Of a stretch of DNA of 64,000 nt, positions 41,850 through 42,185 are shown piece by piece. The DNA comes from Escherichia coli (GTDB lineage: Bacteria; Pseudomonadota; Gammaproteobacteria; Enterobacterales; Enterobacteriaceae), in the NCBI RefSeq assembly GCF_003018115.1, contig NZ_CP027457.1; one strand, given 5' to 3'. How positions within the stretch are numbered: the first letter of the stretch is position 1; the number at the start of each line of letters is the position of its first letter. Both the position numbers and the translations under genes were made by a program. Under the pieces are notes generated by a model, which saw only the letters and a list, made by a program, of their open reading frames with translations, was not told the DNA's origin and made no database searches.

Positions 41850-42184
41850 CTGAACACATTTGTCGGATGCGGCGCGAGCGCCTTATCCGACCTACGGTTC
41901 GCTATCTCTGGTATATGCCTGATAAGACGCGAATAGCGTCGCATCTGGCACACTGCCAATGTCGGATGCGGTGCGAGCGCCTTATCTGACCTACGGTTCG
42001 CTATCTCTCGTAGGCCGGATAAGACGCGAATAGCGTCGCATCTGGCACACTGCCAATGTCGGATGCGGCGCGAGCGCCTTATCCGACCTACGGTTCGCTA
42101 TCTCTGGTAGGCCTGATAAGACGCGAATAGCGTCGCATCAGGCACACTGCCAATGTCGGATGCGGTGCGAGCGACCAATCCGAC

Positions 42185-42185
<1 letters not shown>
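41850..42185. repeat. REP/BIME palindromic repeat array (about 3.5 units of ~100 bp)
   Basis: Repeated gtcggatgcggcgcgagcgccttatccgacctacggttcgctatctct...ataagacgcgaatagcgtcgcatc units. Confidence 0.8.

Follow-up and report, generated by a model that had tools for sequence, protein, structure and literature searches.

The tandem repeat that fills the spacer between znuB and ruvB in this Escherichia coli genome is, as read from its sequence, an ordinary E. coli BIME-2, which makes it an intergenic repeat of an already known type rather than something new. BIME-2 elements have been known since about 1990 and carry the nomenclature of Gilson, Bachellier and Hofnung. We hold with high confidence that the array represents a BIME-2 where the 3' ends of the convergent znuCB and ruvAB operons meet; most likely, it would work there as a bidirectional block of 3'-end hairpins. 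Below, we lay out the anatomy of the repeat, its variation among strains and genera, and the role that it may play at the ends of the two operons.

Location and anatomy of the repeat

The window is the whole stretch of 64,000 nucleotides that was analysed. Tandem Repeats Finder recovered one array between the two genes, with a period of 97 bp, 3.4 copies, 92% matches, no indels and a score of 565, and a repeat search of the window gave start-to-start distances of 99, 97 and 97 nt between the units, together with many inverted-repeat pairs. The spacer between the convergent genes znuB (+) and ruvB (-) measures 342 bp and is filled by the array. An earlier note on this DNA had proposed a tandem repeat of about 3.5 units of ~100 bp at 41850-42185, which is confirmed to within ~10 nt in position and 3 nt in period; the repetition stands, while the exact period is 97 bp and the start 41861, so that the proposed size and start were slightly off. 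Its placement of the repeat as intergenic also holds, apart from the last degenerate unit, which enters the ruvB stop codon, so the array is not strictly extragenic. This overlap involves only the 4-nt foot of the last palindromic unit (PU), and the remainder of the PUs lie between the znuB and ruvB stops. The flanking genes were named from the annotation under BLAST matches in 5,426 complete E. coli genomes, and the K-12 MG1655 record presents an identical gene order (znuC-znuB > < ruvB-ruvA).

The znuB-ruvB repeat is far beyond chance. The PU tail motif CTTATCNGRCCTAC, allowing at most one mismatch, occurs six times in the 64-kb window, five of them within the array, with 0.05 expected from shuffles, and six or more copies were reached in 0 of 100 shuffles. 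RNA folding of the array gave -175 and -172 kcal/mol for the two strands, corresponding to z = -8.4 and -7.3 versus shuffles. Short open reading frames run through the REP units at 41867-41989 (+), 41804-41959 (-) and 42160-42600 (+); these are by-products of the repeats and are unannotated in every genome examined.

Structurally, the 97-bp unit is made of one Y-type PU and one inverted Z2-type PU, joined by two short linkers (Table 1). A pattern scan found seven PUs in the strictly alternating strand order + - + - + - +, with the tail-to-tail linker (15 nt) and the head-to-head linker (11 nt) each present three times. The first unit measures 99 nt because of the 2-nt insertion listed with the first Z2-type PU. 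Reference Y and Z2 REP sequences were taken as quoted in PMC11208160; the four + strand PUs have a gapless identity of 25-30/35 to the reference Y, and the three - strand PUs agree with the reference Z2 at 31-34 of 36-37 positions. On folding, 7/7 PUs are imperfect hairpins with an internal mismatch, ranging from -14 to -21 kcal/mol. The CTAC foot (GTAG on the opposite strand) is intact in five of the seven, the two others having ATAT (Z2 no. 1) and TTAC (Y no. 4). The fourth Y-type PU is the weakest and most degenerate hairpin, at -14.1 kcal/mol, and since its foot is the reverse complement of the ruvB stop, the hairpin begins right after the ruvB UAA on the - strand. All seven hairpins, compared with the Y and Z2 references, fit the E. 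coli palindromic-unit consensus; the earlier note had read the repeat as a REP/BIME array and had named units lacking the REP palindrome consensus as what would speak against it, and the consensus is present in every one of the seven.

The C>T pair of Y no. 2 affects the two strands differently, giving G-U wobble in the znuB-sense (+) RNA (-15.1 kcal/mol) and C-A mismatches on the - strand (-5.8 kcal/mol). Selection on one transcript may lie behind this asymmetry, the events being too few to tell. Elsewhere in the window, the pattern scan found two isolated REP-like PUs, at 27566-27601 (+) and 36742-36775 (+), one of them Z2-like and one Y-like.

Table 1. Features of the znuB-ruvB spacer and its flanking genes, in window coordinates
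Feature	Position	Strand	Remarks
Whole BIME-2 array	41861-42190		3.4 tandem units of 97 bp, 7 palindromic units (PUs); Tandem Repeats Finder and repeat search
znuB, upstream convergent gene	41057-41842	+	stop codon 41840-41842, 19 nt before first hairpin stem
ruvB, other convergent gene	42185-43195	-	stop codon 42185-42187, within foot of PU no. 4
Y-type PU no. 1 (GTCGGATGCGGCGCGAGCGCCTTATCCGACCTAC)	41862-41895	+	CTAC foot intact; hairpin -19.2 kcal/mol; 30/35 to reference Y
Tail-to-tail linker GGTTCGCTATCTCTG(GT)	41896-41912		recurs at 41995-42009 and 42092-42106
Z2-type PU no. 1	41913-41949	-	degenerate foot, ATAT for CTAC; 2-nt insertion
Head-to-head linker ACACTGCCAAT	41950-41960		recurs at 42047-42057 and 42144-42154
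Y-type PU no. 2	41961-41994	+	two C>T changes
Z2-type PU no. 2	42010-42046	-	CTAC foot intact (ATCCGGCCTAC)
Y-type PU no. 3	42058-42091	+	same sequence as Y-type PU no. 1
Z2-type PU no. 3	42107-42143	-	best copy, with -21.3 kcal/mol and 34/37 to reference Z2; carries the natural IS621 target ATCAGGCCTAC unchanged
Y-type PU no. 4	42155-42188	+	degenerate, 25/35 to reference Y; foot TTAC, reverse complement of ruvB stop codon
Y+Z2 pair matching Rfam naRNA4 (RF02564)	42013-42088	-	67.2 bits versus gathering score 59.5

Identity among known repeat systems

In the accepted classification, as restated by Ton-Hoang et al., a BIME-2 combines Z2 and Y REPs that are placed inversely to each other and joined by short linkers, in tandem copies whose number varies by strain, and a BIME-1 is one Y + Z1 pair whose long linker binds IHF (PMC3333891). 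Every sequence-level trait of BIME-2 is found in the array, namely the Y and Z2 types, their alternation, the foot, the stem mismatch, the short linkers and the tandem copies of variable number. The model BIME-2, REP325, lies between yjdM and yjdN in K-12, and has in common with the array the alternating Y and inverted Z2 PUs, the GTAG/CTAC foot, the stem mismatch, short repeated linkers and tandem units, variable in number by strain, at a 3' end. The two differ in period (97 bp here versus 100 bp for REP325, under the identical pattern scan), in PU number (7 versus 12), and in setting, the array lying between convergent genes and REP325 within an operon. Additionally, the Y units of the array carry a locus-specific paired change, GTCGGA...TCCGAC in place of the GCCGGA...TCCGGC of REP325, which keeps the stem. 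The closest relation is with K-12 MG1655 itself, whose allele (146-bp spacer, NC_000913.3 1944200-1944345) occupies the same position, begins with the same Y unit and ends with the same degenerate one across the ruvB stop, but contains three PUs (1.4 units) against the seven (3.4 units) of the array. The array is thus a longer allele of the element at the corresponding K-12 site.

Several other known systems resemble the array in part. BIME-1 (RIB/RIP, the IHF-binding REP pair) also closes a transcription unit with inverted REPs at its 3' end, but it is a single pair and the array is tandem; a BIME-1 or IHF element was rejected, as the partner of Y is Z2 and not Z1, the linkers (at most 15 nt) are too short for the L motif, and the IHF consensus WATCAANNNNTTR was absent from the spacer in a motif scan. 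Replication risk sequence (RRS) elements were likewise set aside, since their source paper only discusses BIME-2 as possible topological barriers; that paper places the two RRS copies on either flank of the Ter macrodomain, each at a distance of 650 kb from dif. Short palindromes at a regular period of ~100 bp are also what a CRISPR-like or other spacer-holding array would present. We give this reading next to no credence, and it is refuted by the sequence: the 15-nt and 11-nt linkers recur in every unit, so that the repeat is the full 97 bp and unique spacers are lacking, successive palindromes face opposite ways, and the array is flanked by znuB and ruvB and by no cas genes.

A further reading takes the units as genes for naRNA4-like nucleoid-associated small RNAs, which would be released from read-through transcripts and would bridge cruciforms with HU, thereby condensing the chromosome. 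Such a model was published for naRNA4 (PMC4550694), and one Y+Z2 pair of the array scores above the Rfam gathering score (Table 1), with the remaining units at 35-53 bits, under that score (cmscan). However, naRNA4 was defined on the 77-nt Y+Z2 units of REP325 (PMC4550694), and any good BIME-2 unit scores well in a family so built; the match therefore restates the BIME-2 identity and shows no separate RNA gene. REP325/naRNA4 was also found to have no measurable effect on nucleoid compaction and no HU-dependent REP-REP contacts, in a study (bioRxiv 10.64898/2026.03.23.713779) that shares an author, Adhya, with the original naRNA4 paper. An independent small-RNA gene was rejected on the same explanation of the Rfam match and on the lack of a promoter-like site in 41000-43000. 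Taken as naRNA4-like genes acting on the nucleoid, the units would make a very improbable case, and we keep to the BIME-2 reading. Other Rfam matches at gathering level in the window are the antisense overlapping pair SraC/RyeA and SdsR/RyeB, at 20743-20887 (+/-), and a cspA-type thermoregulator 5' UTR at 4795-5255 (-).

Variation among strains and genera

The znuB-ruvB locus was found by BLAST in 5425/5426 complete E. coli genomes. Unit number was surveyed in 60 evenly spaced records with a synthetic eight-unit array as the query, the record span giving the true spacer length. The form with 1.4 units (455-bp span) was seen in 42/60 records (~70%), K-12 among them with its 146-bp spacer and three PUs. 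Forms with 2.4 units (5/60, ~8%, O157:H7 among them) and with 3.4 units as in the window (4/60, ~7%) are less common, and a single record, from strain TOK-001, carries 5.4 units, as confirmed by Tandem Repeats Finder. The allele was interrupted in 7/60 records (~10-12%), and one record was a plasmid bearing a 35-bp REP match alone, a different locus. The TOK-001 array, at 462-983 of the retrieved locus, has 11 PUs in a 534-bp spacer and is the largest allele in the sample.

At least three PUs are kept in the intact alleles examined, and the forms with 2.4 to 5.4 units would represent later local expansions of a three-PU BIME. Among the 5,426 E. coli genomes searched by BLAST, none reproduces the array of the window without a difference, F9792 coming closest at 98.8%. 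A 2-nt insertion variant is common to the first and third units of F9792, which suggests that a block of two units was duplicated in that strain.

The locus has also received insertions specific to REPs. In the interrupted allele of strain 1162C (NZ_CP051659.1, ~2806-4240 of the retrieved locus), the IS3-family element IS1397 sits in the loop of a Z2 unit, where the flanks read ...GATAAGACGAACA / TGAACTG...CAGTTCA / ACAGCGTC, with an apparent 3-bp ACA duplication. The same allele contains a 59-bp insert (2695-2753 of the retrieved locus) at the CT of the first Y-unit foot, flanked by the 13-bp repeat CCTTATCCGACCT. This insert corresponds to the left end of IS621 over its first 59 bp, and the same sequence stands directly upstream of annotated IS621 transposase genes elsewhere; it was matched in 2229/5426 genomes, with 555 records at an identity of at least 99%. 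The first 59 bp of the left end presumably encode the 5' part of the bridge RNA, and we take the solo fragment to end within the region of the target-binding loop, a part similar to the REP target. Such an end suggests recombination between this mimic of the target and a neighbouring Y unit as the event that removed most of IS621.

IS621 is a REP-targeting, bridge-RNA-guided element of the IS110 family, with the natural target ATCAGGCCTAC (PMC11208160). The exact target is present at 42107-42117 (-), in Z2 no. 3, and the variant in Z2 no. 2 (ATCCGGCCTAC, 42010-42020, -) deviates at position 4 alone, a position that tolerates a mismatch; the array in the window is thus a ready landing site for IS621. 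One 11-mer match to the IS621 target, at 59617, lies outside any REP. The landing of REP-specific elements at this locus is independent evidence that the machinery of the cell treats the units as REPs.

Beyond E. coli, a cross-genus scan by the conserved 3' end of ruvB recovered 32 Enterobacteriaceae loci, and a convergent znuB lies downstream of ruvB in 26 of them, most of the other six having too little downstream sequence. From genus to genus the znuB-ruvB spacer is hypervariable, measuring between 28 and about 1100 bp. Among the 32 loci, the two from Escherichia alone contain Y/Z2 units of the E. coli type; both have about three PUs with the ruvB-proximal PU eroded. The spacer of Salmonella arizonae holds a single REP-like palindrome, that of Klebsiella holds GTAGCCCGGCTAAG-type units, and that of Kosakonia sacchari holds a classical bidirectional terminator of A-tract, hairpin and T-tract. 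From the sequences compared, a strong hairpin is nearly always present in this spacer, and in the Escherichia lineage the three-PU BIME evidently takes that place. Long spacers are found in Pluralibacter (about 1107 bp), Huaxiibacter (about 792 bp) and Phytobacter (305 bp).

Proposed function and its alternatives

The spacer contains no T-tract intrinsic terminator, the two terminator-like sites nearby lying inside znuB at chance level, and a scan of 41000-43000 found no promoter-like site in it; the REP hairpins are therefore the only structured elements at both operon ends. Most likely, the array is a bidirectional 3'-end hairpin block, acting as an attenuator and as an exonuclease barrier. 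Transcribed from either side, the hairpins would function as a bidirectional, partly Rho-dependent transcription attenuator, and would also block 3'-exonucleases, defining and protecting the 3' ends of the znuCB and ruvAB mRNAs. REP325 has been described as a partly Rho-dependent attenuator and a stabiliser of mRNA 3' ends (Xiao and Adhya groups, bioRxiv 10.64898/2026.03.23.713779). The same study placed REPs between ~30% of convergent gene pairs, going with higher expression of both genes, and 78 REPs within predicted bidirectional terminators; it found no genome-wide difference in half-life for REP-ended mRNAs, with a large variance from locus to locus, and no role of REPs in nucleoid compaction. 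In its supplements, znuB appears only in the differential-expression table and in no REP table.

The array is probably also a gyrase site, the Y units as DNA being candidates for preferred binding and cleavage by DNA gyrase. In Topo-seq data, gyrase cleavage is enriched in BIME-2, mostly in Y units, is independent of transcription and is concentrated in a subset of loci (PMC6379681). Additionally, the last hairpin, which abuts the ruvB stop codon, could slightly damp the termination of ruvB translation; ruvB is the sole candidate for such a stop-proximal effect, since the stem of Y no. 4 adjoins its UAA and Y no. 1 stands 19 nt from the znuB stop.

With regard to origin, the three-PU form may have come from a REP family recognised through the GTAG foot by the host RAYT/TnpA-REP (REP-associated Y1 transposase), and it may have expanded by unequal recombination or slippage between units. 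The RAYT/TnpA-REP gene of K-12 lies far from the znuB-ruvB region. The protein binds REPs via the GTAG foot and the stem mismatch, and cleaves and recombines BIMEs in vitro (PMC3333891); these bound features are kept in 5/7 PUs of the array. That unit number ranges from 1.4 to 5.4, and that ~10% of genomes tolerate two IS insertions, argues that the array is loosely maintained, its size and integrity being under weak constraint at best.

This looseness is also what would be expected of selfish or neutral repeat DNA without host function at this site, persisting as the spacer of convergent genes tolerates an array, and we regard such a reading as possible, though somewhat unlikely. It agrees with the predominance of the shortest form (~70% of sampled genomes) within the range of 1.4 to 5.4 units, with IS1397 and the IS621 fragment inside the array in ~10% of sampled genomes (content examined in 1162C), with the erosion of terminal PUs both in the window and in other Escherichia species, and with the spacers of 28-90 bp that suffice in other genera. 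However, some strong hairpin is present in the spacer of every genus examined and in the window the BIME hairpins alone provide it, at least three PUs are kept in the intact alleles examined, and the internal PUs retain the GTAG foot and pairing. Alternatively, the key function may be translational, with the hairpin right after the ruvB stop stalling terminating ribosomes and lowering RuvB output. According to the summary of Liang 2015 in PMC12306157, REPs less than 16 nt from a stop codon, that is within 15 nt, lower translation of the upstream gene, and no nucleotide separates the ruvB UAA from the stem of PU no. 4. The E. coli alleles compared, that of K-12 among them, retain this PU; in the two further Escherichia loci studied it has eroded. 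Yet it is the weakest of the seven by energy and, at 25/35 identity, a degenerate Y that is further eroded in other Escherichia species, and a stop-proximal effect would explain one PU and not a tandem array; as the key function, it appears rather improbable. The bidirectional 3'-end hairpin block remains our preferred reading of the array.

The value of this check is a negative one, as it removes a periodic array from the candidates for something new and returns a textbook example of BIME-2. The locus also makes a compact illustration of REP biology, with a variable unit number at a site present in about 5,400 genomes, captured IS1397 and IS621, and genus-specific hairpins in the spacer. The ruvAB operon is SOS-regulated, and znuCB is a zinc-uptake operon. 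The polymorphism in unit number (1.4 to 5.4; 3.4 here) could represent a strain-specific regulatory dial, with additional hairpins changing read-through, 3'-end protection or local gyrase recruitment, an idea that we consider quite improbable. If it were true, Holliday-junction processing or zinc uptake would be tuned without any change to coding or promoter sequence, and the tuning of ruvAB or znuCB by unit number would represent one concrete case of "REPs as noncoding expression dials".
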